In this document: positions 10,084-55,043 of the stretch, one piece after another
Layout of the letters: every line of letters begins with the position of its first letter
Position numbering within the stretch: the first letter of the stretch is position 1
From: Herpetosiphon sp. NSE202
GTDB lineage: Bacteria > Chloroflexota > Chloroflexia > Chloroflexales > Herpetosiphonaceae
NCBI RefSeq assembly: GCF_042688385.1
Contig: NZ_JBHUPY010000007.1
Span: 322,110 to 386,109, forward strand
Direction: 5' to 3'
Length of the DNA stretch: 64,000 nucleotides
The notes under the pieces: model-generated
Told to the model about the DNA's origin: nothing
What the model saw: the letters and a program-made list of their open reading frames with translations, nothing else
Databases searched by the model: none
Position numbers and translations under genes: made by a program

Positions 10084-10141
10084 GAGAACTCCATACCTCC
10101 GTAAAGATCAAATTTGTATTATCACAGTCTAGTGTGAGGCA

Positions 10142-14686: not shown

Positions 14687-14728
14687 CCCTCACCCCCAGC
14701 CCCTCTCCCACTCAACGCGGGCGAGGGG
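14687..14728. repeat. half-copy (single arm) of the G-rich palindromic MITE/REP-like element family
   Basis: ccctcacccccagcccctctcccactcaacgcgggcgagggg is the reverse complement of the right arm found in the five full copies. Confidence 0.6.
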
Positions 14729-14770
14729 AGCACTGGTCTCGTGGTTAACCTGGTATATCATACGAATAAC

Positions 14771-14812
14771 CACAAAAGCGCCAGCTTGGCTTAGGCTAAG
14801 CTGGCGCTTTTG
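14771..14812. terminator. bidirectional intrinsic terminator between the convergent protease gene and paralog A0
   Basis: agcgccagctt-ggcttaggct-aagctggcgct (11-bp stem) is flanked by caaaa on the 5' side and ttttggttttta on the 3' side. Confidence 0.5.
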
Positions 14813-17117: not shown

Positions 17118-17138
17118 AGCCTTCTTCCTCTCTGGCTC

Positions 17139-19574: not shown

Positions 19575-19623
19575 TGGAGCATACTATCGAACCTTCTCAC
19601 AATCATAGCAAACTATGCTGAGC

Positions 19624-21954: not shown

Positions 21955-21957
21955 CGT

Positions 21958-24291
21958 CTATGGTTGTGGATAAACATAAATAACCTTAAAGACGTACAAC
22001 CAAGTGCTGCGTACAATGCCGCTGAAACTGGCCAACGCCAACCAATGCTGATCAATGCGCTCGACAAGATACAAATCAGCATTCAGTTGCAAGGCTAAAC
22101 GCTGGCCAAACCAATCGCTCTTGCGCAGCGTGAATTCATCAGCAAGCAGCAGTGATTCGCCCAACCGCCCTTGACGGCTCACACTAACCAAGCGTGAGTT
22201 AATCGCGTGGCTTTGGCCGATAAAGTAGACGTTACTATCGCCCGACCATTGGCCTTGAAATTGCCGCAACTGGTCGCGCCACAACTCCAAGCCCGTGCTG
22301 CTATCGAACATCAACAACGTGCCATAGCGCCAAGGGTAGCTTCGCTCAAACAGCATCATCGTTTGACCATCAGGCGCGATATCGATGCCAAGGGCCTTGG
22401 TATTACTGGTCGGCATCAGCATTTGGGCTTGGTGAGCCAAAATTGAATAGCTCTGAAGTTGATCGTCCCAATCGCGATAGACGACGGTGGGCGCACCAGC
22501 CATGTACCAAAGCTGGAGCATATCAGCCGAATCGAGCAAATGTGTGGCTTGGCTTGGCTCGTTGGCTGAGGCTTGCCACACCAAATAGCGATCATTCCCA
22601 AATCCAGGAGTGTAGCCAACAATCGTTGCCTGCTGCCCATCCCAGTAAATCGGTGTTAGGTAAGTTGCGTCGGGCAGCTCAGCAAAAATTCTGGTTTGGC
22701 CAGTTTGCAGATCGAAGGCAAGACATTGATTGAAGCGCGAATCTTCGTTCATATCGAAACGATAGCTGTAGCAGAGCAAAATACTGCGATTATCGGGCGC
22801 ACTGACCCCTTCCAAATCACTCCAACCCAGAACATTAGCAAGCTCCAAATCAAGGGTGATCGTCGTTTGGTTAGTCGGGTCAAGAATCTGCAAGCTTGCG
22901 TCTGCCCGCGCAATTAACAATGGCGCTGCATTCCAACGGGCAAGGCTATAGATATTCGCTTGCTGCCAAATGCCACGCAAACCTTCAGTCGTAAGCTGCC
23001 TGGTTTGCTCCTCGTCGTTCAGCAACGCCAAGGGTTGGACTGCTAACGGCACAGGCGCAAGCGGAGCCTTAGCCGCAATCGCGCTATCGACGGGTTTGAG
23101 CGCCGGTGGATCGACTGCTGGCATGAGCGAGCGCTTAGGAATAAGCGCAAAACTCGCATAATTTGGTTGCTCAGCCATAGGGCTAGTCGCCAGATCCATG
23201 AAGAAGCTTTGGTCGGTTGCCAGCTCGATAATTTCAAAGAGGTCAGTGTTATGCAGCAGGATTAAATGTTGATTATCGAGAAAGCGAATCCGTTGCCTAC
23301 CATCTCTATGCTCAGAATAATCCCCATAATAGACTAATGGGCGTTGCCACAAACCAAGCGGGTTGCCAGCCCGATCGTAGGCAAAAATCTCGAGCGCTGA
23401 ACCCAGGGTGTCGGAGCTATCGATAACCACAACTACAGTCTTGAGGTCAGGCGAAACTACTAGCTGTTGAAGCCGATCAAGCTGTGCTAGGTGCGAAAAT
23501 TCGGTTTGGTTGAGCGTTTGACGCTTGAGCAGATCGATCTCGCTGATTATGCCCGCGCCAAAAACCAGCGCCCGCTGCCCATCGGCTGCCACCGCAGCAA
23601 ACTCTAGTTGGCTAAAGAATGGTTCGCCAAAACCATCACGAGCTGCATCAAAGCCAAACAACTGGCCATCGGCCAAGAGCCATGGGCCAGCAGCGGTTGG
23701 CAAGACCTGCGGTTGTTCGTGTACCAACGGCGCTTGATACTGGCGCAATACCACGCCACTGCGGCTATCCAGCCCGCGCAAACGTACCGTTGCAGGCTGA
23801 AATGGGTCATTGGTGGTTTGTTTTTCCAGCAACCAGACCAGCTGCGCAAAAGGATCATGAACCACATCCACAATCGTGGTTTCGAATTGGGCTGCTTGGC
23901 TGTGAATGGGCACGTGCCATAAACGCTGATTATCGCGCAGCGAACGGGCTTCGAGCCAAACAGAATTGCGACTCAACAGCACCTCACGCTCGCGATCAAG
24001 TGTGATCGTCACATTCCAAGCGGCGAGCGTGCCTCTGGGTTCGGGCTGATTAACGCCATCCCAAAATTTAAGCTCCGCCTTGCTGCCAACCAATAAGAGC
24101 TGCTGATCGCCCAGCGGCGTACTTGGGGTTATGGCTGCCTGTTGCGTTGGCTCGGGCGCTGGCGATGCTGGAGTTTGGGTGGTTAACATCAGTGTGATCA
24201 ATAAACCAACCCCAGCCAGCACTGGCAATATGTACCAGTTGTGCCATGAACGACCAATTTTGGTGTGCTGCGAATGCTCTTCCATCAACAA
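21958..24291 (-). CDS. paralog A3: signal-anchored form
   Basis: 777 aa. MLMEEHSQHTKIGRSWHNWYILPVLAGVGLLITLML anchor; core about 75% identical to A1; C-terminal ...IYVYPQP. Only a 3-nt gap to A2. Confidence 0.75.
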   Translation of the reverse strand: MLMEEHSQHTKIGRSWHNWYILPVLAGVGLLITLMLTTQTPASPAPEPTQQAAITPSTPLGDQQLLLVGSKAELKFWDGVNQPEPRGTLAAWNVTITLDREREVLLSRNSVWLEARSLRDNQRLWHVPIHSQAAQFETTIVDVVHDPFAQLVWLLEKQTTNDPFQPATVRLRGLDSRSGVVLRQYQAPLVHEQPQVLPTAAGPWLLADGQLFGFDAARDGFGEPFFSQLEFAAVAADGQRALVFGAGIISEIDLLKRQTLNQTEFSHLAQLDRLQQLVVSPDLKTVVVVIDSSDTLGSALEIFAYDRAGNPLGLWQRPLVYYGDYSEHRDGRQRIRFLDNQHLILLHNTDLFEIIELATDQSFFMDLATSPMAEQPNYASFALIPKRSLMPAVDPPALKPVDSAIAAKAPLAPVPLAVQPLALLNDEEQTRQLTTEGLRGIWQQANIYSLARWNAAPLLIARADASLQILDPTNQTTITLDLELANVLGWSDLEGVSAPDNRSILLCYSYRFDMNEDSRFNQCLAFDLQTGQTRIFAELPDATYLTPIYWDGQQATIVGYTPGFGNDRYLVWQASANEPSQATHLLDSADMLQLWYMAGAPTVVYRDWDDQLQSYSILAHQAQMLMPTSNTKALGIDIAPDGQTMMLFERSYPWRYGTLLMFDSSTGLELWRDQLRQFQGQWSGDSNVYFIGQSHAINSRLVSVSRQGRLGESLLLADEFTLRKSDWFGQRLALQLNADLYLVERIDQHWLALASFSGIVRSTWLYVFKVIYVYPQP

Positions 24292-24323
24292 TCCTCTCAG
24301 GGTATACAGTTTTACGCATTGGC

Positions 24324-24419
24324 TTAGCGGGGATACACATAGCGTACCCTGCTTCTAGGCGTGGCTTCGAGTTGGATGCGCCAAGCAAGCTCCCAATCTG
24401 CATCAGTTAGCTCAAATTG
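24324..24419 (-). pseudogene. out-of-frame remnant of the canonical C-terminus of the family, downstream of truncated paralog B1
   Basis: Minus-strand translation gives QFELTDADWELAWRIQLEATPRSRVRYVYPR*. This aligns with the C-termini of B2 (...QIDWRISEDVGLSEEIYYVYPR*) and B3 (...TEWRMAPMEINIETIRYLYPR*) but is in a different frame from the B1 ORF, which ends at 24412. Confidence 0.55.
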
Positions 24420-25932
24420 GGCAATCGGTTGGCGGCGCTAAAGGCGCAGGAGTTGCCAAAGAGTCAAGCACATAATTTGGCGTGGGCGTTGGGTCGACTA
24501 TTGCGTGAAACGCTGGGCCTAAAGGCTCAACCGCTGCCCCAACGACTTCGCCCAGCCAATAAATCTGTTGGGTATGCGCTTCAATCGGAGCTACGAAACT
24601 CTCAGTTGTGTCGGTTGAGCTATTCCAGCGATACACCAACGAGTGGTAAAAAAGCAGCTCTACGCTGGTCGGCGCTTCAAGCCATTGGTCAGCAATGCTT
24701 GCTGGGTAAAATAAGGTAGACGAATTCTGAAAACGCCGTGTTTGCAGTTCACCATCGGTTAATCGGTAGACCGAATAGTAATTCCGCTGTTGATTAATAT
24801 CGACTTCTTTTGCATTTGTATCACTCTTAACCAGCAACATGGTCTGATCAAGCGCTAAGATACTCCCGAATATCTCGCCCTTGATCGGTTGCTTTAAGCG
24901 CACTCTGCGCTCGGCCCCAGTCGCCCAATTGATCAAGCCCAGCTCGTCGCTAGTGCGAAAAATAGCCAATTCAGTTTGTTGGCCATCGCCCATAAGCGTG
25001 TTGTTGTAGCTCATTCCAAAGCTGGTCTGCAGGTTGGTCGCCGTGTCTAAGCGATAGAGTTGGCGCTGCTGCACAAACCAAATCTGGCCAGCAGCGGTCA
25101 CCACTGGCGCGCTATCCGGCTGAAACTGAAGATCGTTGCTTGGAGCTAACGCCCGACCATCAGCCAAGGCCAAATAGCTTAAGTGCCAAAGATTGGGCTG
25201 TTCGCCTTGCTCAAGCAAATACATGCCAGTTTTGGCCTGATCAAGCGCAAGCTTGCCGCCAAATTGATTGGGCAATAGCTGGTAGCGCCAGCGCTCACGC
25301 TTGCTCAGCAAATCGATTGCAATCAATTGCCGATTGCGGGGGATCAGCACAGTTTGCTGGGCTGGCAACAGCGCAACCAAGCCCTCGCTATTGGCATCAA
25401 TCGCAGCAATTGGCACTAATTGATTGGGATCGGCACGGTTCAAATAAACCTGCGAGCCAGCAGTATCGCGATTGATTAGATAGATATGGCGCTCAAACGC
25501 AGGTTCTGGAATTGCGGTTACAGTTGGCAATGGCGAAGCAGTGGCAAAAATAGCACGGGTCGCGACCGCCAGCGGAACAGCATCTGGCTTAATCGGTTCG
25601 GGCTTAATCAGCTCAGGGTCAAGCGTGGCTAGTGGGCCAAGTTGGTTGATTGGCAGCGCTGTGCGAGCTTGAGCACTTGGCGTGGCACGAGGAGTTGTGC
25701 TTGGAAATAGAACAATCGTGGCGGTCGGGCTGGGTTTAATCGTGGGCGAGGCAGCAAGCGCCACGGCTGTTGGCTGCTTGGTAGGGCTAGGTTGGGCTTG
25801 ATCAACAGCGCTTAAACCAAACAGCATACGCAGAACTAAGCCAAGCCCAATTACTGTGCAACTCAGCAGCAAAACCTGCCAACGGCGCACGTCATTACGA
25901 GCCTTGGCGGCAGAACGATCATCCATCAGCAA
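24412..25932 (-). CDS. paralog B1: internally deleted, frameshifted derivative (possible pseudogene) of the B-type members
   Basis: 506 aa. Anchor RRWQVLLLSCTVIGLGLVL. Collinear with the N-terminal roughly 480 aa of B2 and B3 up to ...YWLGEVVGAAVEPLGPAFHAIVDPTPTP, then terminates. The roughly 400-aa C-terminal domain seen in B2 and B3 is missing except for the out-of-frame tail at 24324-24419. Confidence 0.6.
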   Translation of the reverse strand: MLMDDRSAAKARNDVRRWQVLLLSCTVIGLGLVLRMLFGLSAVDQAQPSPTKQPTAVALAASPTIKPSPTATIVLFPSTTPRATPSAQARTALPINQLGPLATLDPELIKPEPIKPDAVPLAVATRAIFATASPLPTVTAIPEPAFERHIYLINRDTAGSQVYLNRADPNQLVPIAAIDANSEGLVALLPAQQTVLIPRNRQLIAIDLLSKRERWRYQLLPNQFGGKLALDQAKTGMYLLEQGEQPNLWHLSYLALADGRALAPSNDLQFQPDSAPVVTAAGQIWFVQQRQLYRLDTATNLQTSFGMSYNNTLMGDGQQTELAIFRTSDELGLINWATGAERRVRLKQPIKGEIFGSILALDQTMLLVKSDTNAKEVDINQQRNYYSVYRLTDGELQTRRFQNSSTLFYPASIADQWLEAPTSVELLFYHSLVYRWNSSTDTTESFVAPIEAHTQQIYWLGEVVGAAVEPLGPAFHAIVDPTPTPNYVLDSLATPAPLAPPTDCPI

Positions 25933-26081
25933 ACCCTCTCACTCGTGCTTGACCATGGGGAATAGTACGATCAAGCCTAGCGTAAGCGTCATGGGTTGCA
26001 CAATGATAGCAAGCTGATGCCAAGCTGAGTCGGGGGCTGAGGATCATAACCTGTGATCCAATCCCCAGCCCCTCTATTCAA

Positions 26082-28784
26082 TTAACGTGGATACACATAA
26101 TAAATCTCTTCGGAAAGGCCAACATCCTCGCTAATCCGCCAATCAATCTGCAATGCTTGGCCATCCCAGCTAAGTTGTTCAAGGCTTGGTTGCCACAAAT
26201 GCTGGGCCAGTAGCGTTTTGCCATCGTTATACAAGGCTACTGGTTTTTTGAGCGGATCACGCTTTGTACTAAATACGAGGCTTGGTTGTTGGGCGTTATA
26301 AACGCCAAGCCGTTGTTCGCGGACAATATTCCCAAAATCCAGCAACAACCAACGGCCATCAGGCGACCATAAAAATGGGCTTTCGCTACTCTCGGAATAC
26401 GCGCCTGAATCTAGTTGATACCAGCGTTGCTGCTCAAGCTGGTATAAGGCCGGAGCACTACTGCCATCAGCTGTTGGCAACATAAAAGCAAAGCTATTGC
26501 CTTCGGGCGAAAAACTCAGCGCATCGGCGGCTAATGGCAGCAAGGGCAGAGCAATATCGTGGCTCTGCTGCTTAACCAAATCGAGCACTCGCAGCAGCAT
26601 CGTTTTATTAGCAGCCGCCAGCGGGTAGATGAGCCAGCGTTGATTGGGCGCAACATACACCCGGGCCAGAATCGCATTGCTCACATCAGGAATGTTGGCC
26701 ACAATCGCGGGAATTTCAGCGATTTTTTCGGCTTGGAATGGCGGCCCGAGCTGCACCCGCCAAAGCGGTTGCGGGTTTTTGCTGGTTTGCAGAAAATAGA
26801 TGCTATCGCCTTGCCAAGCAAGTGGCTTAGCCCATTTCAATTCTGGCCAGGTGCGTGAATCGGCGAGCACATTCCATTCGCCAGTTTGGGTATTGATTTG
26901 CAGCAGTTGACTTGCCCCGATAAATTGATCGTTGCTGCGCATATCTTGGCCTACCACCACCATGCTTTGATAATTTGGCGCAAGCATGCTGTCGATAAAA
27001 CTTTCGTCGTTCAGAATCTTTTCAAATTTCCATTCGACAATTTGCTGGCTCACCGGATCAAGCAATTGCCATGTTGTTAATTTGGGGTGTTGCAGCACTA
27101 AGGGCGGCTGATTATAGCGCTCAAACAGCCTAGCGCCTTCCTCAACCAATACTTCAAGCGTTTGATCAGACGATAGCCGTTGCAAGCGTAAATCTAGGCC
27201 AAGCCGATCGCCAAAAATTGCCACTGGCTGAATGCTTGGAGGCTGAATCGTTGGCAAATTCGGCTGATCATACATTGGCACCATGGTTGGTAATGGGGTA
27301 ACCGCCGCTTGATATTCGCTATTCGCCAGATTAATCGCCGGGCCAGCGATCTCACCCAGCCATGCGATGCGATGATCGCCCCACACTGAAGCCGGAACAA
27401 CCTCGGTCAAGCTATTGGTTGCTACATTCCAACGGCTAACCAACCGCTGCTCACGCTCCCAATCGAAGCTTGAGATGAACCATTGATCGGCAGTTATGCC
27501 GGGATAGATTGAGCTAAGGCTGTCAAATTCGCTAATCCCAAGCAACTGCCCAGTTCGCAGGTTGTAGACCGAGCTGAAATACCGATCGTCAACGCGTGGA
27601 TCATCGCTACTGATCATGCTCTTAACCACCAAGGTTTGTTGGTTATGCGAGAACATGGCGCTGAGCAGATTGCCTTGAAACGGCGGATTTAATGCTACTT
27701 GCTGCTCATTGCCACTCGCCCAATCGATCAGGCTCAACGTGGTTGGTGCACGAAACACGCCTAAGAATGGTTGTGTGCCATCACCAACAATCTCATTCTT
27801 ATTAAGCGCACCAACATCGCGTTTAGCCATGGTTATGGGGTCAAATTGAAACAGTTTATCCTCTTCGATGCCCCAAATCTTGCCATCGCTGGTCATGATA
27901 TGGCTATGGCCTGGGAGAGTTAATGAGCTTGGGCCAGCAAGCAGTTGAGCATCCTGAATTGTGTGATGGCTCCACGCCCAACTTGCATCAACGCTACTCT
28001 GATCAAGCACATAGACCCCGCTGCCAGTTTGATCGATCGTCAGCATCGCTTTATGTTCATACTGGTTTTTGGGCAATAATTGCATACTCCAACGCGGCTG
28101 GCCCGTTTTGATGTCAATTGCAAATAAGCTTTGATTGCGCGGCAGCAGCAAGGTTTGTTGCTCGGGCAACAGTGCCATAAAGCTTGCTGCATACTCATCG
28201 ACGGTCGCAATTGGCACAAAGCCTGTGGCCGCAACTCGTACCAATTGATATTGCTCTGTATCAGCACGCACAATAATTGCATAGCTATGAGTTTGGCCAA
28301 CTGGCGTAGCTTGCGCAGTGAGGGTTGGCAACGGCGTAGGCGTTTGAAGCCCAAGCGTTGCTGCGGGAATCGTCGTTGTTGGTTGTTGAATAACGGGCAC
28401 AATCGTTGGCAACAACTCAGCATCATGCAGATCCTTGGTTGGAACGCTGGTGAATGCTGGCTCAATCGTCGCTAAGCGAAACTCGCCTGGGTCTGCTGGC
28501 AAAACTTGGATTGGCGGCGCTGATTGCTCTGGTTGCCAGGCAGGAAATGGTGCAGCGATCAAGGTCGGGCTAGGTTGAATACTTGGCGTAGCTGAACCAA
28601 GCAAGGCCACCGCACTCGCTTCAACATGCGCTTCATCAAGCGTACTTGGCATGAATGTGAGCACCAGCATCAAGCCAATTAAGCCCAGCGCACCAAGCAC
28701 TGGCAATACCCGCCACCAATTACGATCCTTGCTCAGTTTCACTCGTTCCCGTTGTGGTTGCATCGATATTGCTCCTCTATTCAA
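26082..28784 (-). CDS. paralog B2: signal-anchored two-domain beta-propeller-repeat protein
   Basis: 900 aa. MQPQRERVKLSKDRNWWRVLPVLGALGLIGLMLVLT anchor (an alternative start lies at 28763). The C-terminal domain carries LWSPDGRWLL (PD40 motif) and ends ...YYVYPR. Confidence 0.75.
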   Translation of the reverse strand: MNRGAISMQPQRERVKLSKDRNWWRVLPVLGALGLIGLMLVLTFMPSTLDEAHVEASAVALLGSATPSIQPSPTLIAAPFPAWQPEQSAPPIQVLPADPGEFRLATIEPAFTSVPTKDLHDAELLPTIVPVIQQPTTTIPAATLGLQTPTPLPTLTAQATPVGQTHSYAIIVRADTEQYQLVRVAATGFVPIATVDEYAASFMALLPEQQTLLLPRNQSLFAIDIKTGQPRWSMQLLPKNQYEHKAMLTIDQTGSGVYVLDQSSVDASWAWSHHTIQDAQLLAGPSSLTLPGHSHIMTSDGKIWGIEEDKLFQFDPITMAKRDVGALNKNEIVGDGTQPFLGVFRAPTTLSLIDWASGNEQQVALNPPFQGNLLSAMFSHNQQTLVVKSMISSDDPRVDDRYFSSVYNLRTGQLLGISEFDSLSSIYPGITADQWFISSFDWEREQRLVSRWNVATNSLTEVVPASVWGDHRIAWLGEIAGPAINLANSEYQAAVTPLPTMVPMYDQPNLPTIQPPSIQPVAIFGDRLGLDLRLQRLSSDQTLEVLVEEGARLFERYNQPPLVLQHPKLTTWQLLDPVSQQIVEWKFEKILNDESFIDSMLAPNYQSMVVVGQDMRSNDQFIGASQLLQINTQTGEWNVLADSRTWPELKWAKPLAWQGDSIYFLQTSKNPQPLWRVQLGPPFQAEKIAEIPAIVANIPDVSNAILARVYVAPNQRWLIYPLAAANKTMLLRVLDLVKQQSHDIALPLLPLAADALSFSPEGNSFAFMLPTADGSSAPALYQLEQQRWYQLDSGAYSESSESPFLWSPDGRWLLLDFGNIVREQRLGVYNAQQPSLVFSTKRDPLKKPVALYNDGKTLLAQHLWQPSLEQLSWDGQALQIDWRISEDVGLSEEIYYVYPR

Positions 28785-28949
28785 TCATGAGTGGCTATAG
28801 GCTATGGGCTTTGGGAACCGCGAAGCACACGAAGGTTTCCTTTTTTAGCCACGAATTGCCCGAAGCATAGATTGTAGTCACAGATTTTTTGCCTTCTGCC
28901 TTTTGCCTTTTGCCTTCATCCCCGATCCCCAACCCCCGATCCCCAACCC

Positions 28950-31613
28950 TCAACGCGGATACAGATAGCGAATCGTCTCAATATTGATTTCCATTGGAGC
29001 CATGCGCCACTCAGTTTGCCATTCTTGCTCCCGCCATGTCAACTGGGTAAAGGCCGGATTCCAAGGTTGGCCAGTTATGAGCGTTTTTCCATCGTTATCT
29101 AAGGCTAATAATCGATGCTCAGTCGGCTCAATCTGCGAACGCAAAGCTAGGCTTGGTTGCTGCGTATTATAGATGCTCAGGCGACGTTTAAGCCCAACAT
29201 AACCAAAATTCACCGCTAGCCACTTACCATCAGGCGACCATAAAAACTGGTCTTGGCTATGAGCATAAAAGCCTGCATCAAGCTGATACCAGCGTTGCTG
29301 CGCAAATTCATACAAGCCAACATAGTGATCATGCTTGGGGTTCAAGCTTGGTAGAATTAACCCAAAACGCTCACCATCGGGCGCAAAGCTCAAGCCCACC
29401 AGATCGATCAATGGCAGCGTCAATTCATGGCTTTGTTGCGCGACCAAATCGAGCACCTTCACCAACATGGTTTGCTTATTCGCCGTTGCCAGGGGATAGA
29501 GCAACCAGCGTTGGTTGGGAGAAACAATGATCCTGGCATAGATTGGGGCACTTGTAACTGCTGGATCATTGGCAACAACGCTGGGAATTTCGGCCAGTTT
29601 TGTGGCTTGAAACGGTGGGCCTAATTGCACCCGCCAAAGCACCTGCGGGTTCGGCCCAGCTTGGAGAAAATAAGCGCTATCGCCGTGCCATGCAATTGGT
29701 TTAGCCCATTGCAACTCAGGCCATGTCCTTGAATCAGCGAGAATATTCCATGCGCCGGTTTGCACATTAATCTGAACTAACTGACTGGAGCCAGTAAATT
29801 GATCACTGCGCTGTAAATCTTGGCCCACAATCACCAGCAAGCTGCGATAATCGGGTGCCAGCAAGGGGTCAAAATCCAACTCACCAGTACTAACAATTTT
29901 TTCAAATTGCCATTCCACAGTTCGTTGGGTGCTTAGGTCGAGCATTTGCCACTGGCGTGATTGGGGGCGTTGTAGCACTAAGGGCAACTGATTGTAACGC
30001 GGAAACGTGCGCACCACAAAATCGGCAAGTAACTCCGTGTGCAAGTCGCTATCGATCCGCTGAATGCCACCGTTAGCAGCAATCAAGGCCACGGGCTTGG
30101 TCGTAGCAGGCACGATCGTTGGCAAAGCTGTCTGTTCATAGATCGAAACAGGGCTAGGCAAGGGCGTAACCGCTGCTTGAAATTCACTTGCAAGCGGTTC
30201 AATTGGCACACCGCTAACCTCGCCAAGCCACAGAATGCCATTATCGCCAATGATCGTTGGCTCAACCACTTGGGTCAACGTATTGGTTGCCATATTCCAA
30301 AGGCTAAGATCGCGTTTGGAACTCACATAATCAGGCGTGATTACTAACCATTGATCGGCACTATTGGTTGGATAGAGGCTGCTAAACATATCATGCTTGA
30401 TCGTGGCAATCAATCGGCCAGTTTGCAGATCATAGGCTAAATAGTCATCATTTGCGCTGAACGAACTGGTAGGCGGAGCCGCACTATCAATAACTAAGAT
30501 CGTTTGATCGTTGGATAAAAAGCCTGCTCTGGGCATCCACTCAAATGGGCTTGCGTCTAATTCAACTGAACGCTCATCGCCAGTTGCCCAATTGATCAGG
30601 CTCAATGTTGTTGGGCTACGAAATACGCCCAATAACGGTTGGCTGCCATCGCCCAAAATTGTAGCATTGGAGAGTGAACCAAATTCTTGGTAGGCTTGGG
30701 TTGCAGGGTCATAGTGAAATAGGGTTTCCGGTGTGGAAAACCAAATATGGCCAGTGCTAGTGCGCAACAGTTGATCAACTGCTGGCAATTTAAAATTTTG
30801 GGCTGGTTGCAGCAAAATTCCATCATTCAACCCAAGGTGACTTAAACGCCAGGTCATCGTTGCTTGATTAATTTCAATCAGATAGACCCCAGTGCCAGCC
30901 TGATCAAGCGTCAAGTGACTTGTATAATCAAGCGCCGTTTTGGGCAACAAACCATAGCGCCATAGTTCGCGACCAGTCGCCAAATCAAGCGCAACCAATT
31001 GCTGATTGCGCGGAATCAAGACACGTTGTTGCGCAGGCAACAAGGCCATAAAGCGGTCGGCATAGGCATCAACGGCAGCAATCGAAACCAAATTATTGGA
31101 GTCGATTCGCACGAGGTTATGGCCCGCAGGATTATGCACAATCGCATAGCGCTGACTTTGGCTGGCTGGCGTTGAGCGCGCAGTTGGCGCTGGCAACGGC
31201 GTAACGGTTGCGGCTGGTAGATTGGTTGGTGCTGGCTCAATCACTGGCACAATCGTAGGTAAGCGAGTCGGATCACCGGGCAAATTAGGAGGAACGGTTG
31301 TCAGCGCAAGTTCTGGTTGCACCGTCACCAAACGAATCTCGCCCAGTTTATCGGGCACGAGCCGAATTGATGGTGGCTCTGTAGGGCGGGTAGGAAACGG
31401 CGCAGCAATCAAGGTCGGGCTAGGTTGAATACTTGGCGTTGGCGAGCCAAGCAAGGCCACAGCGCTTGGTTCAATTGGTGGCGCATCAGGCTCATTGGGC
31501 ATCAATGTCAGCGCCAGCATCAAACCAATTAAGCCCAGCGCCCCCACCACTGGCAACACCCGCCACCAATTGCGATCCTTGCCAAGTTTGACTCGCTCTC
31601 GTTGTGGTTGCAT
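28950..31613 (-). CDS. paralog B3: signal-anchored two-domain beta-propeller-repeat protein
   Basis: 887 aa. N-terminus MQPQRERVKLGKDRNWWRVLPVVGALGLIGLMLALT is nearly identical to B2. FLWSPDGKWLAV and SFAPDGERF motifs; C-terminal ...RYLYPR. The 5' flank is duplicated with that of B2. Confidence 0.75.
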   Translation of the reverse strand: MQPQRERVKLGKDRNWWRVLPVVGALGLIGLMLALTLMPNEPDAPPIEPSAVALLGSPTPSIQPSPTLIAAPFPTRPTEPPSIRLVPDKLGEIRLVTVQPELALTTVPPNLPGDPTRLPTIVPVIEPAPTNLPAATVTPLPAPTARSTPASQSQRYAIVHNPAGHNLVRIDSNNLVSIAAVDAYADRFMALLPAQQRVLIPRNQQLVALDLATGRELWRYGLLPKTALDYTSHLTLDQAGTGVYLIEINQATMTWRLSHLGLNDGILLQPAQNFKLPAVDQLLRTSTGHIWFSTPETLFHYDPATQAYQEFGSLSNATILGDGSQPLLGVFRSPTTLSLINWATGDERSVELDASPFEWMPRAGFLSNDQTILVIDSAAPPTSSFSANDDYLAYDLQTGRLIATIKHDMFSSLYPTNSADQWLVITPDYVSSKRDLSLWNMATNTLTQVVEPTIIGDNGILWLGEVSGVPIEPLASEFQAAVTPLPSPVSIYEQTALPTIVPATTKPVALIAANGGIQRIDSDLHTELLADFVVRTFPRYNQLPLVLQRPQSRQWQMLDLSTQRTVEWQFEKIVSTGELDFDPLLAPDYRSLLVIVGQDLQRSDQFTGSSQLVQINVQTGAWNILADSRTWPELQWAKPIAWHGDSAYFLQAGPNPQVLWRVQLGPPFQATKLAEIPSVVANDPAVTSAPIYARIIVSPNQRWLLYPLATANKQTMLVKVLDLVAQQSHELTLPLIDLVGLSFAPDGERFGLILPSLNPKHDHYVGLYEFAQQRWYQLDAGFYAHSQDQFLWSPDGKWLAVNFGYVGLKRRLSIYNTQQPSLALRSQIEPTEHRLLALDNDGKTLITGQPWNPAFTQLTWREQEWQTEWRMAPMEINIETIRYLYPR

Positions 31614-31685
31614 CGAAATTCTTCCTCTCTATTCAATCATGAGTGGCGATGGGCTATGGGCTTTTGGCGTTAACCATAGCCTGAT

Positions 31686-31788
31686 CCCCTCACCCCCTAG
31701 CCCCCTCGCCCGCCCACGGGCGAGGGGGAACCACGCGGCACTTACTCCCCTCGCCCGCGTTCAGTGGGAGAGGGGCTGGGGGTGAGGG
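31686..31788. repeat. full copy (B) of the nested-palindromic G-rich MITE/REP-like element
   Basis: Left arm cccctcaccccctagccccctcgcccgcccacgggcgaggggg, spacer, then right arm cccctcgcccgcgttcagtgggagaggggctgggggtgaggg. The arms are mutual reverse complements. Confidence 0.7.
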
Positions 31789-31878
31789 CATGCTACTTAT
31801 TCCCAATCTAATGAACCCACATATAGCCGATAGCTCATAGCCCGATCCCCGATCCCCGATCCCCAGCCTCCATTCGCC

Positions 31879-35409: not shown

Positions 35410-36972
35410 TTAGCCTAATGCTTCGAGCAAGAGCGCTGCTTCGTCGGCGCTAATCTTGCCACTTTGCACCATCTTCAAAATCGCCAAGCGTTCTTGGGTT
35501 TTATCAACTGCTGGAGCTTCGGCTGCTGGAGTTTCAGCTGCTTGGGCAACAGGTGCGGCCTGCGCTGCAGCTGCTGCTTGCTCTGGCGTAATCCGCACGG
35601 TATCGCCGGTGTAGGCCACGTGTTGGCTTGATGATGATCCATCATCTTCACTAATCGAGACGCGATGTGGCGCATTTGGCGCTGCTGGTGGCGCTGGCGC
35701 ATTTGGCGCTGCTGGTGGCGCTGGCGGGCGTGGCGCATTTGGCCGAGCAACATTTTTCTCGATATTGCCCAAGGCTTGGCCAATCGCCTCGTAAGCGCGG
35801 CTAATGCCTTCATCAGCAGCTCGTTTGGCTTGCTCTTTCAAGCGCTCGATTCGCTCAGGGTCGAAACGATATTCGCGTTCGTTGATCCGCACGCTGACAC
35901 GTTCGGCGGCTTTGGCAGCCCGTTCAGCAGCGCGTTCGGTGGCTTGGCGGGCGCGTTCAGCAGCCTTTTCGCCCTTGCCACCATGCCAATCGCGGCTGAG
36001 TTCGCTGAATTGGGCGGCAATATCACGGCCCATCGAGGCTAGGTCATCGGTGAAATCGCGAATTGCGCGGTTGAAATCATCGCTCTTCCAATTCCAGTTG
36101 CCGCCCCAATTGCCGCTGCCCACGCTCTTCGATTGGCCTGCTGCCGCAGCGCCACGAATGCTCAAATCGCCTTGTACATTGACTTCGAGCCGAGCCGAGC
36201 CATTGCCCCAGGTCAGGCTAATGCCACCAGGCTCACGGTCGGCCATGCCGGAAACATCGCCTTGCACAAAGCCGTTGACGGTCAAATTGGCATCGTCGGT
36301 AACTTCCAAAATCAGATCGCCACTCGCATTGGCGTGATAGACGTGCTCAGGGAACCAATTGACACCTAATTTCAAATCGCCATCAACGTGAATTGGCGCA
36401 AGGCTCTTGATTAGGCCACGCAAGGTTGCATCGCCACTCACCCGAGTAACTGCCACATCACCAGTAATATCGCTAGCGCTCAAATCGCCATGAATATTGC
36501 TAATCGTCAGGTTATGCACTTGGCCGATTTTTGCATCGCCATTGACATTTTTGACTACCACAGTATCAGCGTTCTCATAGATTTTGAGATCGCCATCAAT
36601 GTTGGCGATGGTAATGTTGGCGCTTTTGGTTAATACCGCATCGCCCTGCACCGAAGCACCTTCGAAGGTTTGCACATCGCGAATATTAAGATCGCCTTCA
36701 ATTTGGCGGGTGTGAACTGCCGCAATCCCACTAATATCCAGGTCGCCTTGCACTACTTCTAGGGTCAAGGTTGTGCCATGGGGCAAGCGCAATTCCAAAT
36801 CATCGGAGCAGCGCTCGATCGAAAGATGGCCTTCTTGGGCGCGAAAACTAATCTCATCTTCAGCAACATCAAACCAGGCTTCGGCGAGATCGTGGGCAAT
36901 AACCCGTAAGTTTCCTTCACAAATGCGAACCGCCACGGTTGGATTCGTACCAATATTAATACGTTGTTGCAT
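35410..36972 (-). CDS. DUF4097-like (toast-rack / putative adhesin beta-strand repeat) protein with a Pro/Ala-rich linker and a C-terminal SHOCT/DUF1707-like peptide module
   Basis: 520 aa. Many GDLxI / GDAxL beta-strand repeats (VVQGDLDISG, ANIDGDLKIY, NVNGDAKIG...), then a coiled ERAAERAAKAAER segment, a PAPPAAPNAPAPPAAPNAP linker, and a C-terminal QERLAILKMVQSGKISADEAALLLEALG. Confidence 0.7.
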   Translation of the reverse strand: MQQRINIGTNPTVAVRICEGNLRVIAHDLAEAWFDVAEDEISFRAQEGHLSIERCSDDLELRLPHGTTLTLEVVQGDLDISGIAAVHTRQIEGDLNIRDVQTFEGASVQGDAVLTKSANITIANIDGDLKIYENADTVVVKNVNGDAKIGQVHNLTISNIHGDLSASDITGDVAVTRVSGDATLRGLIKSLAPIHVDGDLKLGVNWFPEHVYHANASGDLILEVTDDANLTVNGFVQGDVSGMADREPGGISLTWGNGSARLEVNVQGDLSIRGAAAAGQSKSVGSGNWGGNWNWKSDDFNRAIRDFTDDLASMGRDIAAQFSELSRDWHGGKGEKAAERARQATERAAERAAKAAERVSVRINEREYRFDPERIERLKEQAKRAADEGISRAYEAIGQALGNIEKNVARPNAPRPPAPPAAPNAPAPPAAPNAPHRVSISEDDGSSSSQHVAYTGDTVRITPEQAAAAAQAAPVAQAAETPAAEAPAVDKTQERLAILKMVQSGKISADEAALLLEALG

Positions 36973-36984
36973 CGCTCAGACTCC

Positions 36985-37347
36985 TTATTCAACCACAATT
37001 TCAATACGTTCGCCGTCTTCAAGATCTTCCATATCAACGATTTTGCCAGTCATACCGCCGCGAATTGCTTCCAACATTTCGTCAAAGTTAAGCGTCGTAT
37101 GTTTGTTGGAAGCAAAGCGTGCACCGAGTTTCAAGCCAATGCTAATCAAGCCAACTGGAATATTGACATTGATTTTGTGATGGTTGGACTTCAAATCGGT
37201 TACCCGAATGCGCACCCATTGAGCACGCACTGGGCGAGAAATTCGATTGTTTGGCTCCATCACGCCAAGCAAACGTGCGCCTTCTTCGGCAGTCAATTGG
37301 CCATTTTCAATCAGGCGCAAAATGCGCATGCGTTCTTCGGTTGCCAT
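36985..37347 (-). CDS. small protein carrying the same N-terminal EERMRILRLIENGQLTAEEGARLL module
   Basis: 120 aa. Separated by 12 nt from the downstream DUF4097-like gene and by 11 nt from the upstream DUF2089-like gene, so a three-gene operon is likely. Confidence 0.6.
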   Translation of the reverse strand: MATEERMRILRLIENGQLTAEEGARLLGVMEPNNRISRPVRAQWVRIRVTDLKSNHHKINVNIPVGLISIGLKLGARFASNKHTTLNFDEMLEAIRGGMTGKIVDMEDLEDGERIEIVVE

Positions 37348-37358
37348 TGAATACCTTC

Positions 37359-37718
37359 CTAGCCTTGCAGCAGTTTGAGCGCTTCTTCAGCACTCAGTTC
37401 GCCGGTTTCAAGTTGCCGCAACACCTCGCGCGAATCAGGTCGCGAAATTGAGGGCGGCGCACCCAAAGCAGCAGCGATTTCGTCCATGCGCATTCGCGCT
37501 GTCGTATACGACACATTCAACGAGCCTGCGACTTGGTTGACGTTGCCCCGATGTTGGGCCAAGAGTTCCACAAAGCTGAGTTGTTCGCGGGTCAAACGTC
37601 CCAAGCGCCCGAGCGTAAATTGGCCTTCAATCGCCGTGTTGCAAATTGCACATTCCAACCGAGTGCTGGTGAGTTCGCCCATACAAACTGGACATTGAGT
37701 CAAGATAGGATTCATCAA
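37359..37718 (-). CDS. DUF2089-like zinc-ribbon plus HTH protein, putative regulator of the triad
   Basis: 119 aa. N-terminal CPVCMGEL...CAICN zinc ribbon, a central HTH-like segment (LSFVELLAQHRGNVNQVAGSLNVSYTTARMRMDEI), and C-terminal LRQLETGELSAEEALKLLQG. An AT-rich promoter region with TTGACA lies upstream. Confidence 0.65.
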   Translation of the reverse strand: MMNPILTQCPVCMGELTSTRLECAICNTAIEGQFTLGRLGRLTREQLSFVELLAQHRGNVNQVAGSLNVSYTTARMRMDEIAAALGAPPSISRPDSREVLRQLETGELSAEEALKLLQG

Positions 37719-37840: not shown

Positions 37841-38022
37841 CCCCTCACCCCAACCCCTCTCCCGCCCAGCAGGCGAGGGGCTTTAACCGCGTGGTTCTCT
37901 CCCAATTCCTTGGTGCATCACGGATGCTCTCCCTCGCCCGCATTCAGTGGATGACGAAACTTCAACTATTTCGCTCCCCCTCGCCCGCGTTCAGTGGGAG
38001 AGGGGGCTGGGGGGTGAGGGAA
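37841..38022. repeat. full copy (C) of the MITE/REP-like element, with an internal partial duplication of the right arm
   Basis: cccctcaccccaacccctctcccgcccagcaggcgagggg ... ccctcgcccgcattcagtgg ... cccctcgcccgcgttcagtgggagagggggctggggggtgaggg. Confidence 0.7.
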
Positions 38023-38122: not shown

Positions 38123-40906
38123 GTGGAACCGATATATATCGCCTTGGACTTGGAAACAACTGGCTTAGAACCAGGGCGCGATGAGATTATTGAAGTTGGG
38201 GCCGTTAAATTTCGTGGCAACGAGGTTCTCGAAACCTACCAAACCTTGGTCAAACCCAAACAGGTGCTACCAATCAAAATTGCTCGTTTAACTGGCATCG
38301 ATGCTCACGAATTAACCACCGCGCCAAGCTTTAATAGCATTGGTGGCCAAGTAGCCAAATTTCTCAAAAGCTATCCAATTATTGGTCATTCGGTTGATGG
38401 TGATTTGCGCTTTTTGCAGCAACAAGGGCTAAAAGTCACCCAGCCGCATTACGATACCTTCGATTTGGCGACCTTGTTGATTCCGCAATTGCCCAATTAT
38501 TCGCTTTCAACGATCGCCGAACATTTGCAAATTGCCCATCCTGATGCCCACCGCGCTTTGGCCGATGCCGAAGCGAGTCGCTTGGTGTTTACTGCGTTGC
38601 TCGATAAATTGGCTGAATTATCGGCTGCCGAATTGCATAACATCGCTCAAACTACCCAAAAATTGCAATGGCCGCTGGCTAAATTATTTGGCGAAATTGC
38701 CAAACGCCGCGTGCAAACGGTCTGGCAAGCACCAATTGAATTTCAGCCCAAACCAATTGTGCGTCCGATTGCGCTTGAACCAACTGGCAACCAACAATTG
38801 CTCGATAGCCAAGCGATTGGCGCAATGTTCGGGGCCGAAGGTGGCTTTAGCCGCATGTTTCCTGGCTACGAGCCACGCCAACCACAAATCGAAATGACGG
38901 TTGCTATCGCCGAAGCGCTCAATCAAGGCGATACCTTGATGATCGAAGCGCCAACCGGCACGGGCAAAAGCTTGGCCTACCTCGTGCCCGCCGCCCAATG
39001 GGCACGCCAACGCGGCGAACGGGTTGTCATCTCGACCAACACGATTAACTTGCAAGATCAGCTGTGTTCCAAAGATATTCCGACTGTGCAAGCGCTCTTG
39101 GCAGAGCATCCCGACCAAGCACCAGCGTTGCGCGCCGTGCAGCTCAAAGGTCGCAGCAACTACCTATGTTTGAAGCGCTACGAAGCCTTTCGCGCCCAAC
39201 CAGACCACAACGAAGATCAAACCCGTGGCTTGTTGAAGTTGCAACTGTGGTTGCCATCAACCAACAACGGCGACCGCTCGGAATTAATGCTGATTCAAGG
39301 CGAACAGCAGGTTTGGAATAATGTTAATGTTGATCCCGACCAATGTTTGCGCCAACGCTGCTCGCTCTACAACGAATGTTTCTTCTTCAAGGCCCGCGCT
39401 GAGGCCGAAAACGCCCATATTGTGGTTGCCAATCATGCCTTGTTGATGGCCGATGTTAAATCGCCTGGCATTTTGCCACGCTACGATCATTTGATTATCG
39501 ACGAAGCGCATAACCTCGAAGATGTTGCCACCGACCAATTGGGCTTTCGGATTTCGCAACACAGCTTAAACAGCTTGCTCAACGATATGCACAGCACAGG
39601 CGGCGCACGTTTAGCGAGCGGCGTGCTCAACGAGTGGCCGCAACTCTTCCGTTTGAGCACGGTCGACCATAAAGAGCAACGCAAACTCGAAGATATTAGC
39701 GCCGATGTGCGCCCGAATGTTGAAAAAGCCCGCGATGCAGCCCAACAATTGTTCAGCATTTTCAACGATATTATGGCCAAAGATCGCAGCGTAACCCAAT
39801 ACGATCCTCAATTGCGCATCACTACCAAAATTCGCCGCCATGCTGAATGGAGCCAAGTTGAGCAAACATGGGAAAATTTGAGCATTAATTTGCGCAAAAT
39901 TGGCGATGGTTTTGGCAAACTCCAAGCAATTTTGGATAATCTCGAAGGCCGCGATATTAATGGCTACGACGATTTGGTGATGCGGGTCAAGGGCATTGTC
40001 AATGCCTGCGGCGAATTACAACGCCAATTTGATCTGGTGATTTATGGCAACGAAGAGACCGTGGCCTGGCTCACCGCCGATCAACGCCGCCGCGAATTGT
40101 TGGTCCAAGCAGCGCCAATTCATGTTGGGCCGTTGCTCACCGAAGATCTTTGGATGAAGAAACGGGCCAATATTTTGGTTTCAGCCACGCTTTCGGTCAG
40201 TAATAGCTTCGATTACCCCAAGCAACGCTTGGGCTTAGATGAAGCCACAGCCATGCAGCTCGATTCGCCATTCGATTACAGCAAATCGACCTTAATCTAT
40301 TTGCCAACCGATATGCCCGAACCCAATGAGCGCAATTATCAACGCGCCATGGAAGACGCATTAATTAATTTATGTAAAGCGACTGGTGGCCGCACCTTAG
40401 CCTTGTTCACCGCCAATACATCGCTACGCCAAACCTACCATGGCATTAGCGAAAGCCTTGAGCAAGCGGATATTTCGACTTTAGCGCAAGGCATGGATGG
40501 CTCGCGGCGTTCGTTGATCCAACGCTTCAAATCTGACCCACGCACGGTTTTGTTGGGTACAGCCTCGTTTTGGGAAGGCGTGGATGTGGTTGGTGATGCC
40601 TTGAGCGTGTTGGTGATTACCAAGTTGCCCTTCAGCGTGCCCAACGACCCAGTGTTTTCGGCGCGATCCGAGGGGTTCGACGATGCTTTTGCTGAATACT
40701 CAGTGCCGCAAGCGATTTTGCGCTTCAAACAAGGCTTTGGCCGCCTCATTCGCTCCAAAGATGATCGCGGGATTGTGGTGGTGCTTGATCGGCGCTTGCT
40801 CAGCAAAAACTATGGTCGCCAATTCCTCGAATCATTGCCCGATTGCACCGTGCAGCGCAAGCCGCTTTCTGAGCTCGCAACTACTGCGGCCCGCTGGTTG
40901 GTTTAA
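38123..40906 (+). CDS. dinG: DinG-family ATP-dependent helicase with an N-terminal DnaQ-like 3'-5' exonuclease domain
   Basis: GTG start with GAGGAG 5 nt upstream. N-terminal IALDLETTGL (Exo I motif); Walker A APTGTGKSLAYL; DEAH box IIDEAHN; a Cys-rich segment (FeS-like CLKRYEAF...CSLYNECFFF); C-terminal helicase motifs. 927 aa. Confidence 0.85.
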   Translation: MEPIYIALDLETTGLEPGRDEIIEVGAVKFRGNEVLETYQTLVKPKQVLPIKIARLTGIDAHELTTAPSFNSIGGQVAKFLKSYPIIGHSVDGDLRFLQQQGLKVTQPHYDTFDLATLLIPQLPNYSLSTIAEHLQIAHPDAHRALADAEASRLVFTALLDKLAELSAAELHNIAQTTQKLQWPLAKLFGEIAKRRVQTVWQAPIEFQPKPIVRPIALEPTGNQQLLDSQAIGAMFGAEGGFSRMFPGYEPRQPQIEMTVAIAEALNQGDTLMIEAPTGTGKSLAYLVPAAQWARQRGERVVISTNTINLQDQLCSKDIPTVQALLAEHPDQAPALRAVQLKGRSNYLCLKRYEAFRAQPDHNEDQTRGLLKLQLWLPSTNNGDRSELMLIQGEQQVWNNVNVDPDQCLRQRCSLYNECFFFKARAEAENAHIVVANHALLMADVKSPGILPRYDHLIIDEAHNLEDVATDQLGFRISQHSLNSLLNDMHSTGGARLASGVLNEWPQLFRLSTVDHKEQRKLEDISADVRPNVEKARDAAQQLFSIFNDIMAKDRSVTQYDPQLRITTKIRRHAEWSQVEQTWENLSINLRKIGDGFGKLQAILDNLEGRDINGYDDLVMRVKGIVNACGELQRQFDLVIYGNEETVAWLTADQRRRELLVQAAPIHVGPLLTEDLWMKKRANILVSATLSVSNSFDYPKQRLGLDEATAMQLDSPFDYSKSTLIYLPTDMPEPNERNYQRAMEDALINLCKATGGRTLALFTANTSLRQTYHGISESLEQADISTLAQGMDGSRRSLIQRFKSDPRTVLLGTASFWEGVDVVGDALSVLVITKLPFSVPNDPVFSARSEGFDDAFAEYSVPQAILRFKQGFGRLIRSKDDRGIVVVLDRRLLSKNYGRQFLESLPDCTVQRKPLSELATTAARWLV

Positions 40907-40907: not shown

Positions 40908-41075
40908 TTCCCTCACCCCAACCCCTCTCCCGCCCAGCGGGAGAGGGGCTTTTCATATGTTCTTGCACAATTCCAAGGGTCAGCTCCCCTCGCCCGCGCC
41001 GTGGGAGATTGGTAAACAAGGGTCGGCTCCCCCTCGCCCGCGTCCAGTGGGAGAGGGGGTTGGGGGGTGAGGGAA
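40908..41075. repeat. full copy (D) of the MITE/REP-like element, exactly filling the gap between the convergent dinG and PBP genes
   Basis: ttccctcaccccaacccctctcccgcccagcgggagagggg ... cccctcgcccgcgccgtgggag ... ccccctcgcccgcgtccagtgggagagggggttggggggtgagggaa. Confidence 0.7.
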
Positions 41076-43935: not shown

Positions 43936-44045
43936 ATTCCCGATCCCTGACCCCTAATCCCTGACCCCCACAAATAAATTTTGCGATAAAATTATAGCAT
44001 GCAGCCTACACCATTTTCGGTGATTATGCAGAAAGGATGTTTTGC

Positions 44046-54829: not shown

Positions 54830-55043
54830 CAACCAAGCCTAATCACCGGAAAAGCCGATAAAACACAATTCATGCGGCTGCTCGTTTTCGTAGGCAGTGA
54901 TGATAAAGCCTTGCCAGCGCTCGTGATGGTCTTAAATAGCCGACTCGTGGGCGATAATTTGGGCTTTGGTCGGGCGGGTCGTGCCAAAAATTTCGCGTTG
55001 GGCTATTAGACTATTTGTAATGGTTCATTTTAACGACGGTTTG

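Follow-up and report, generated by a model that had tools for sequence, protein, structure and literature searches.

A dense intergenic repeat family of Herpetosiphon with units of the BoxC/PIT/TMECO triplex-motif type

Herpetosiphon genomes carry an abundant family of intergenic repeats. Their basic unit is about 42 nucleotides (nt) long and appears to be of the same kind as the BoxC/PIT/TMECO motif of Escherichia coli. We analyzed 64,000 nt of Herpetosiphon sp. NSE202 (contig NZ_JBHUPY010000007.1, positions 322,110 to 386,109), which we call the window. The window contains six G/C-rich palindromic clusters, copies A to F (Table 1), and all six are genuine copies of the family. We assign a probability of about 70% to the following reading: the family is genus-wide, noncoding, nonautonomous and extragenic; the unit is an intrastrand triplex motif of the BoxC/PIT/TMECO type; dimers of the unit are copied whole; and turnover of the family is driven by folding and polymerase stalling.

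Each unit has three segments, CCCCTCGCCC-loop-GGGAGAGGGG-CT-GGGGGTGAGGG. The first segment is a C-arm, CCCCTCGCCC. The second is a purine arm, GGGAGAGGGG, which base-pairs with the C-arm except for one conserved G·A mismatch. Beyond loop 2 follows a G-rich segment, GGGGGTGAGGG, the putative third strand, which mirrors the purine arm: its T faces an A-T pair and its A faces the G·A mismatch. Loop 1 is 6-10 nt long, with 1-2 extra pairs, and loop 2 is 2-3 nt long (4-7 nt if counted between the 9-mers described below). There are two types of unit. L-type units have a short loop and TT or CTA in loop 2, and R-type units have the loop GCGTTCAGT.

A unit-derived profile detects 11 full units in the six clusters, and two further units, in copies C and D, are truncated. 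The window has 12 matches to the left-arm pattern (0.08 expected from shuffled sequences) and 19 to the CCCCTCGCCCGCG core (2.1 expected). As DNA, the dimers have folding energies of -40.7 to -45.3 kcal/mol, which is far below random sequence (z = -6.4 to -7.8). An earlier note, made from the letters of the window, had placed all six copies correctly and had rightly described their arms as reverse complements. The basic repeat is smaller than the note assumed: the 100-180-nt elements are dimers and composites of the ~42-nt unit. Rfam assigns no family anywhere in the window at gathering thresholds. Matches at E-value thresholds (microRNA precursors, antizyme FSE) are chance resemblances between hairpins. 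Open reading frames (ORFs) of the type "...PLSLNAGEGE..." in Herpetosiphon are artefacts, and annotators should treat them with caution.

Known from E. coli since the 1990s, BoxC/PIT/TMECO motifs are puzzling in both function and spread. The earlier note had not recognized this family. The earlier literature is said to comprise work by Bachellier et al. and by Hoyne and Maher from 2000 and 2002. The pattern 5'-CCCTCNCCC N3-6 GGGNGAGGG N3 GGGNGAGGG-3', named TMECO, corresponds to the E. coli BoxC/PIT element (Holder et al. 2015, PMC4666352). According to circular dichroism and nuclear magnetic resonance (NMR), this motif folds within one strand into a triplex of class II, the purine-motif type. 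Experiments also demonstrated that it stops a polymerase and that local variability is raised (PMC4666352). The three 9-mers of the E. coli motif, CCCTCGCCC, GGGAGAGGG and GGGTGAGGG, are identical in Herpetosiphon, in the same order and on one strand. PMC4666352 lists E. coli sequences (its Table 1) that can be aligned over their whole length with the Herpetosiphon profile. The optional G·A mismatch is shared as well (E. coli types A mm and B mm, with G in the C-arm and A in the purine arm), and so are the T and A positions with which the third strand mirrors the purine arm. A relaxed pattern, CCCTCNCCC-N3-10-GGGNGAGGG-N2-7-GGGNGAGGG, matches 9 of the 11 full units of the window. It also matches 162 units in 647 kb of surveyed sequence, which is Herpetosiphon-rich DNA around unit loci and enriched for units, and it has no match in 200 shuffles. 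A BLAST search of E. coli genomes with the unit gave no match, probably because the query is masked by the low-complexity filter, and says nothing about absence.

The stems of the unit are maintained. Of 224 units, 188 retain the G·A mismatch, and variation in the loop-proximal pairs affects both sides (GC..GT, GT..AC, AT..AT). Run lengths in the C-arm, the purine arm (G-run) and the third strand (G-run) vary together: (5,5,6), (4,4,5), (4,4,4), (5,5,5); r = 0.73. Across one set of 30 dimers, conservation is 90% or more in stem columns and 30-70% in spacers; the R hairpins, but not the L units or any of the tails, were partly selected by the scan pattern. Spacers have a mean identity of 0.52 within species and 0.50 between them, and few pairs reach 0.9; species-specific subfamilies or recent bursts are not seen in these identities. 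Since spacers are only about 50% identical while the stems are kept, the copies are mostly old or fast-evolving, with all three stems maintained. By analogy to E. coli, we infer that the Herpetosiphon unit folds as a class II triplex; the evidence from Herpetosiphon is indirect, namely the covarying length of the third strand and its mirrored T and A positions.

The G-tracts had previously been interpreted as a G-quadruplex (G4) motif. If the four G-tracts of each arm formed G4 DNA or RNA, they could regulate neighboring genes. The sequence pattern is indeed present: GGG-AGA-GGGG-CT-GGGGG-TGA-GGG is a canonical motif, and the isolated G part folds as a G4 at -9.6 kcal/mol in silico. However, the G-tracts never occur without a complementary C-arm, and the hairpin is preferred at -22 to -27 kcal/mol (ViennaRNA, a model that cannot represent a triplex). 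The E. coli equivalent gave 18 imino signals of a triplex in NMR, and a G4 was explicitly excluded (PMC4666352). Near genes the G-rich strand is usually the antisense strand, hence the mRNA carries the C-rich strand. Finally, the T and A of the third strand are placed so as to mirror the purine arm, although a G4 has no need of this. Of all the explanations that we consider, the G4 is the least supported and very improbable, so that this part of the earlier interpretation is probably wrong. On the comparison with E. coli, the G-tracts are more likely the third strand of a triplex than a G4 signal.

The family extends far beyond the window; a lack of copies elsewhere would have refuted the earlier note. 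A pattern scan of species-representative genomes yields at least 76 loci. The matches listed all belong to H. llansteffanensis, H. giganteus, H. geysericola or a metagenome-assembled genome of the Chloroflexia, and among them no sampled species of Herpetosiphon lacks the family. The 647 kb contain 250 units in 127 clusters. Without the seed clusters this amounts to one cluster per ~15 kb, compared to one per ~11 kb in the window. By extrapolation, a genome of ~6 Mb would contain several hundred clusters. The same core is found in at least 120 IMG/VR contigs with a GC content of 33-71%. It also occurs in a betaproteobacterium, as a tail-to-tail unit pair on the megaplasmid NZ_CP076061 of Cupriavidus sp. 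EM10 (~1,091,500; surveyed locus L077, 1417-1539). As to the window itself, PLSDB contains no match to it, and a plasmid origin is rejected.

Units are arranged in a very regular way. Among the 127 clusters, 51 are pure '<>' dimers and none is a '><' dimer: units face each other head-to-head with their G-rich tails outward and are otherwise single. Almost every typed dimer joins one L-type to one R-type unit, and spacers are most often 19 nt or ~48 nt long. The same L/R asymmetry and the same spacer motifs turn up at different loci and in different species, so the dimer is probably copied as a unit. In two surveyed loci there are also tandem arrays with a period of 187 nt (L003, 1680-2095; L030, 1192-1407). 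One arrayed R unit of L003 has no loop 2 and lacks one G-run (GGGAGAGGGGGTGAGGG), which resembles a slippage deletion between two G-arms.

Inverted doublets are also the hallmark of repetitive extragenic palindromic (REP) sequences and of the REP doublets called REPINs, a literature to which Stern (1984), Nunvar (2010) and Bertels and Rainey (2011) reportedly contributed. In that case the units would be REPs, the dimers would be REPINs, and a single-copy REP-associated tyrosine transposase (RAYT, an HUH Y1 transposase) elsewhere in the genome would move them. Several features fit. In size the units match REPs, and they are imperfect palindromes that occur outside genes in high copy number; the inverted doublets have a fixed polarity and modal spacers; singlets such as copy A resemble decayed dimers; and a conserved stem mismatch is typical of protein-recognized REP hairpins. 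However, the GTAG/CGTC tag that is part of the REP definition (Di Nocera 2013, PMC3733652) lies within 14 nt of the end in at most 5 of the 250 units, whichever tag or side is considered. A cognate RAYT or IS200-type transposase, which the earlier note had proposed to look for, was not found in the surveyed sequence: tblastn and phmmer searches of the 647 kb with E. coli TnpA-REP (query verified against 4ER8) and IS608 TnpA returned nothing credible. Weak IS608 matches in L003 and L030 fall inside a MATE-like transporter gene and a large hypothetical gene and are spurious. No gene family recurs beside the 127 clusters in the 647 kb; a DUF559-like ORF (Vsr-type endonuclease) nested between clusters (L030, 600-968) is a single case. 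There is no dominant master sequence either, as the spacer identities illustrate. The E. coli motif itself is distinct from RAYT-linked REPs and has no transposon association (PMC4666352). Hence, we regard a REPIN-RAYT system as quite unlikely.

Some dimers sit within larger elements of ~170-195 nt that carry terminal inverted repeats (TIRs) and look like miniature inverted-repeat transposable elements (MITEs). In the subfamily that includes copies B and E, the outer TIR TGTACTGGTWCAT... is found in pairs 157-182 nt apart at many loci, with the ends TGTACTGGTWCATTGCGTTAACC... and ...GGTTGCCAATCCAATGAACCAGTACA. F-type copies have different outer arms (CTTACAAGGGTAGG), and other subfamilies have yet others or none. 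This raises the possibility that the elements are ordinary MITEs. The outer TIRs would then be the functional ends, a DDE transposase would move them, and the triplex motif would be mere cargo. Besides the conserved TIR pairs, a possible 4-5-bp duplication at site A (TAACG / ATACG) is compatible with this idea. It is the only candidate: a consistent target-site duplication, another feature suggested earlier, is not visible in the much remodeled intergenic DNA, and the junctions at C, D, E, F and in the hrcA-grpE gap look like replacements instead of clean insertions. Furthermore, most clusters (C, D, F and most singlets) have no such TIRs or have other outer arms, and the 647 kb contain no TIR pair at the distance of an insertion sequence (IS; 500-4000 nt). 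It is the triplex stems, not the outer arms, that are most conserved and common across phyla. MITE transposition is therefore an improbable explanation of the family as a whole. The earlier comparison to REPs and MITEs is supported in part, namely in its description (dispersed extragenic palindromes, REPIN-like dimers, TIRs in one subfamily, presence/absence variation). A REP tag, a RAYT in the 647 kb and a consistent target-site duplication lack support.

Many sites are filled in one species and empty or different in the next. In three species (NSE202, H. aurantiacus and H. llansteffanensis), the D gap, between the convergent stops of the DinG gene and a penicillin-binding protein (PBP) gene, is filled from one stop to the other by triplex-motif composites of different subtypes. 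In NSE202 copy D fills the gap exactly, as had been noted (gene ends 40906 and 41077). In H. giganteus and in the JGI Ga0209460 relative, classic bidirectional intrinsic terminators stand in its place. Thus, as far as the sequences tell, a composite can occupy the place of a terminator. The C site, upstream of DinG, contains a simple L-R dimer in H. giganteus. In NSE202 the R of this dimer is truncated and a new R follows, H. aurantiacus has no element, and H. llansteffanensis has another repeat. At the A site, past the stop of an M4 peptidase gene, NSE202, H. giganteus and H. llansteffanensis carry an element upstream of a retained terminator, and H. geysericola has the terminator only. The hrcA-grpE gap of the heat-shock operon is filled in H. 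llansteffanensis and H. giganteus (L209, 939-976; L211, ~950-1001) and empty in NSE202 (window 10084-10141) and H. geysericola. The JGI relative (83-90% gene identity) has no unit in 24 kb, and the alignment to it is broken at all four gaps that bear the motif (copies C, D, E and F) and at none of nine motif-free gaps. Elements thus come, go and are reshaped from species to species.

A few side observations belong to these sites. The repeat at the C site of H. llansteffanensis is a separate family, GGGGGTGCAGGGGGATTAAAGCCCC...GCGTTTCCC...GGGACGGAAGGG (L068, ~4690-4790; L207, ~2800-2900). The hrcA-grpE gap of NSE202 holds ...TGTGAGGCA..., possibly a relic of a unit tail. The retained bidirectional terminator past copy A (~14774-14812; L211, ~5650-5690) shows compensatory stem changes, GCGCCAGCTT/AAGCTGGCGC in NSE202 versus GCGCCACCAT/ATGGTGGCGC in H. 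giganteus.

The family avoids genes but not their 3' ends. Only 4 of the 127 clusters overlap a called ORF, and these ORFs are short and probably spurious, so that the intergenic location reported earlier holds almost strictly. That convergent 3' ends are the typical setting is correct only in part. Among 103 classified clusters, 30 are convergent (in the window A and D only), 58 tandem and 15 divergent. Sides facing a stop codon lie within 18 nt of it in 31% of cases versus 17 ± 2.6% for random placement. Start codons are avoided: 2% of start-facing sides are that close versus 9.5% for random placement. In singlets within 25 nt of a stop, the tail faces the stop and the C-rich strand is the sense strand in 14 of 15 cases. 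The genes that flank the copies in the window are unrelated housekeeping genes.

These positions suggest another explanation. The elements could primarily be 3'-end signals, either bidirectional terminators or mRNA-stabilizing hairpins, that are spread or retained by the host. The enrichment behind stop codons, the near-stop singlets and above all the D gap, with classic terminators in two relatives and composites in three species, support this view. The L hairpin of copy D followed by CTTTTCATAT is even the top terminator-like match in 14 kb. Yet a T-tract follows only ~10% of hairpins: TTTT occurs within 10 nt of 4 of 41 singlets, 6 of 56 L units and none of 53 R units. Site A has kept its terminator alongside the element, the 15 divergent clusters (including copy C) lie in promoter regions, and some clusters lie within operons (hrcA-grpE). 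There is no overall orientation bias with respect to transcription (singlets 10:7, L-to-R dimers 8:13), and the bias of near-stop singlets would follow from geometry if each singlet were one half of a dimer that abuts a stop. E. coli PIT elements have neither terminator nor promoter activity, at least in the account that PMC4666352 gives of Hoyne and Maher (2002). A primary role in 3'-end signaling seems doubtful to us.

How could a triplex motif spread without a transposase? When DNA becomes single-stranded during replication, transcription or repair, the G-rich strand may fold into a hairpin or triplex, and dimers may fold into long hairpins or cruciforms. The folded structures would stall polymerases, leading to local deletion, replacement, template switching and duplication. 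Stalling together with local rearrangement would explain the spread of the family, its fast turnover, and why it marks rearrangement breakpoints. Under selection, the elements would persist only where DNA is dispensable, immediately past stop codons, and there a composite may even substitute for an intrinsic terminator. One could go further and imagine a structure-driven replicator that is independent of any transposase. Stalled replication and template switching would copy the L-spacer-R dimer into dispensable DNA behind stops, where its long GC palindrome could take over from intrinsic terminators. The 27-nt core shared by E. coli, Chloroflexota and phage contigs would then reflect universal host machinery (e.g., helicases of the DinG/RecG type, replication restart) and neither descent nor a dedicated enzyme. 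We consider this stronger version rather unlikely.

Several points speak against the triplex-driven reading that we favor. In E. coli the triplex was not detected in vivo by dimethyl sulfate footprinting (PMC4666352). The strict TMECO pattern (loop 1 of 3-6 nt, loop 2 of 3 nt) matches none of the units in the 647 kb because the Herpetosiphon loops are longer; with the relaxed pattern matched and the strict loops unmatched, the family is of the BoxC/TMECO kind but not a strict member. Herpetosiphon dimers have their tails outward (51:0), whereas 4 of 5 pairs in E. coli are tail-to-tail. Since the C-arm can alternatively pair with the third strand via G·T wobble, the covariation of run lengths could also mean alternative hairpins or shared descent. 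Stem conservation would equally be expected if some enzyme recognized the stems. The longer G-runs of Herpetosiphon could favor a G4. Finally, the motif-bearing gaps that break the alignment to the JGI relative are longer than the motif-free controls, so that this comparison is unmatched.

Within the window, the copies differ in layout. The short dimers B and E have a spacer of 19 nt, the dimer F has one of 50 nt, and in C and D the L unit is followed by a linker, a truncated R' unit and then a full R unit. Copy A had been called a half, and it does comprise a single R-type unit plus the spacer of a B/E-type dimer. Together with its remnant it is 89-90% complementary over 60 nt to 31729-31789 and 55088-55147. 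Alignment with H. geysericola indicates that the remnant came in with copy A, upstream of the intrinsic terminator hairpin, which lies outside the element. From these matches, copy A appears to be the decayed half of a B/E-type element. The copy F locus (59226-59702) is a nested palindrome with outer arms at 59226-59260 and 59668-59702.

Table 1. Parts of the six copies in the window (position 1 is the first letter of the window)
Feature	Positions	Strand	Remarks
Copy A, lone R-type unit	14687-14728	-	C-rich on + strand; begins 8 nt past stop of M4 peptidase gene
Copy A, third-strand complement	14687-14697		
Copy A, loop 2	14698-14699		
Copy A, purine-arm complement	14700-14709		
Copy A, loop 1	14710-14718		
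Copy A, C-arm complement	14719-14728		
Copy A, joined remnant	14729-14773		B/E-type dimer spacer AGCACTGGTCTCGTGGTT and outer arm of GGTTAAC type; L unit gone
Copy B, left outer arm	31668-31685		GCGTTAACCATAGCCTGAT; truncated left end of TIR-bearing extended subfamily
Copy B, L2-type unit	31686-31727	-	Short loop, CTA in loop 2
Copy B, spacer (19 nt)	31728-31746		AACCACGCGGCACTTACT
Copy B, R-type unit	31747-31788	+	CCCCTCGCCC-GCGTTCAGT-GGGAGAGGGG-CT-GGGGGTGAGGG
Copy B, right outer arm	31789-31822		CATGCTACTTATTCCCAATCTAATGAACCCACA; extended MITE-like subfamily
Copy C, L1-type unit	37841-37880	-	Preceded by TTAAGAT end of element
Copy C, conserved linker	37881-37925		CTTTAACCGCGTGGTTCTCTCCCAATTCCTTGG...
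Copy C, truncated R' unit	37926-37950	+	Cut after GTGG; intact R of simple dimer at same site in H. giganteus
Copy C, full R-type unit	37977-38022	+	Added distal to R'
Copy D, L1-type unit	40908-40948	-	Perfect hairpin 40922-40948, then CTTTTCATAT; begins 2 nt past DnaQ/DinG stop
Copy D, linker	40949-40985		
Copy D, truncated R' unit	40986-41013	+	CCCCTCGCCCGCGCCGTGGGAGATTGGT
Copy D, full R-type unit	41030-41075	+	Ends 1-3 nt short of stop of convergent PBP gene (41077)
Copy E, left outer arm	55016-55043		TIR-like end TGTAATGGTTCAT...; right arm absent
Copy E, L2-type unit	55044-55086	-	
Copy E, spacer (19 nt)	55087-55105		AACCGCTGAATCAGTGCT
Copy E, R-type unit	55106-55149	+	
Copy F, left outer arm	59392-59415		CTTACAAGGGTAGGTTGTTAAGAT; inverted repeat of 59577-59592
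Copy F, L1-type unit	59416-59455	-	
Copy F, spacer (50 nt)	59456-59505		CTTTAA..GGTTCT..AATTCCTTGG..GGTCGGCT; commonest dimer type
Copy F, R-type unit	59506-59550	+	
Copy F, right outer arm	59577-59592		AACCTACCCTTGTAAG

Seven tandem paralogous genes of 766-900 aa lie on the minus strand at 14817-31613; two of them were checked and have no Pfam family. The close relative has two such paralogs directly upstream of DinG, so the paralog array is being rearranged. Two differences in gene content from the JGI relative adjoin elements. A three-gene DUF2089 cluster beside copy C (35410-37718) is absent upstream of DinG in the JGI relative (L078) and present in four named species. A GNAT gene beside copy E (55245-55817) has no counterpart at that place in the JGI relative (L081). 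DinG-family helicases act on unusual DNA structures, and the gene between copies C and D (38123-40906) encodes a fusion of a DnaQ exonuclease and a DinG helicase; this neighborhood is probably a coincidence. A DinG-type protein encoded in the window is identical to one of Herpetosiphon sp. NSE202. Intergenic DNA in Herpetosiphon is made up of several other short 'word' repeats, which also occur in other species and in the close relative: (CCCCGAT)n-like repeats, (CATAGAG/CATAGAA)n, TTAACGCAGAGGCGCAGAG and the inverted pair CGCGAAGGACACGAAG (28921-28962, 31841-31868, 43939-43966, 59203-59233, 59279-59297, 59226-59260 / 59668-59702).

What is new here is the three-stem core in another phylum, at very high density and with many polymorphic sites. 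Our literature search found no paper that links Herpetosiphon to REPs, RAYTs or intrastrand triplex motifs, and no description of the triplex motif in Herpetosiphon or other Chloroflexota. With only 23 copies, E. coli K-12 gives genomics little to work on. Herpetosiphon, in turn, offers clear unit types, dimers, composites and decayed halves, and many sites that are occupied in some species but not in others. These are natural experiments on how the motif is copied, on whether local instability results, and on whether 3'-end signaling is possible.

The family shares traits with three known groups of repeats. Like REPs, their mosaic clusters (bacterial interspersed mosaic elements, BIMEs) and REPINs, it consists of short imperfect extragenic palindromes in hundreds of copies. 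Two unit types alternate in orientation within mosaic clusters, the doublet behaves as the copied unit, and singlets look like decayed doublets. It differs in that it has no tag, no RAYT in the 647 kb and no population around a master sequence, and in that it has an additional conserved G-rich third segment that REPs lack. Like MITEs (Correia, ERIC, RUP and the cyanobacterial Nezha), the elements are 100-200 nt long and noncoding, have long hairpin potential, carry TIRs in one subfamily, insert near gene 3' ends, and vary in presence between relatives. In contrast to MITEs, they have no consistent target-site duplication and no matching autonomous IS in the 647 kb, and their outer arms vary by subfamily while the internal triplex motif is constant.

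The closest relative is the E. coli BoxC/PIT/TMECO motif. Both occur strictly between genes and have no relation to what the flanking genes do, both form inverted pairs that join two different unit types, and both differ sharply in copy number between close relatives. Both are tied to locally variable DNA and have no linked transposase. However, the Herpetosiphon stems have 10-11 triads instead of 9, and conserved spacers of 19 and ~48 nt together with outer arms build composites that resemble BIMEs and MITEs. Copies are enriched behind stop codons, whereas E. coli copies lie more often upstream of ORFs. The window contains about one unit per 6 kb compared to 23 per 4.6 Mb in MG1655, a roughly 35-fold higher density, and the host belongs to the Chloroflexota, while TMECO has been reported in Proteobacteria only. 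Judged by its sequence, the family is not a new type of element but a dense Chloroflexota version of a known, poorly understood E. coli repeat.

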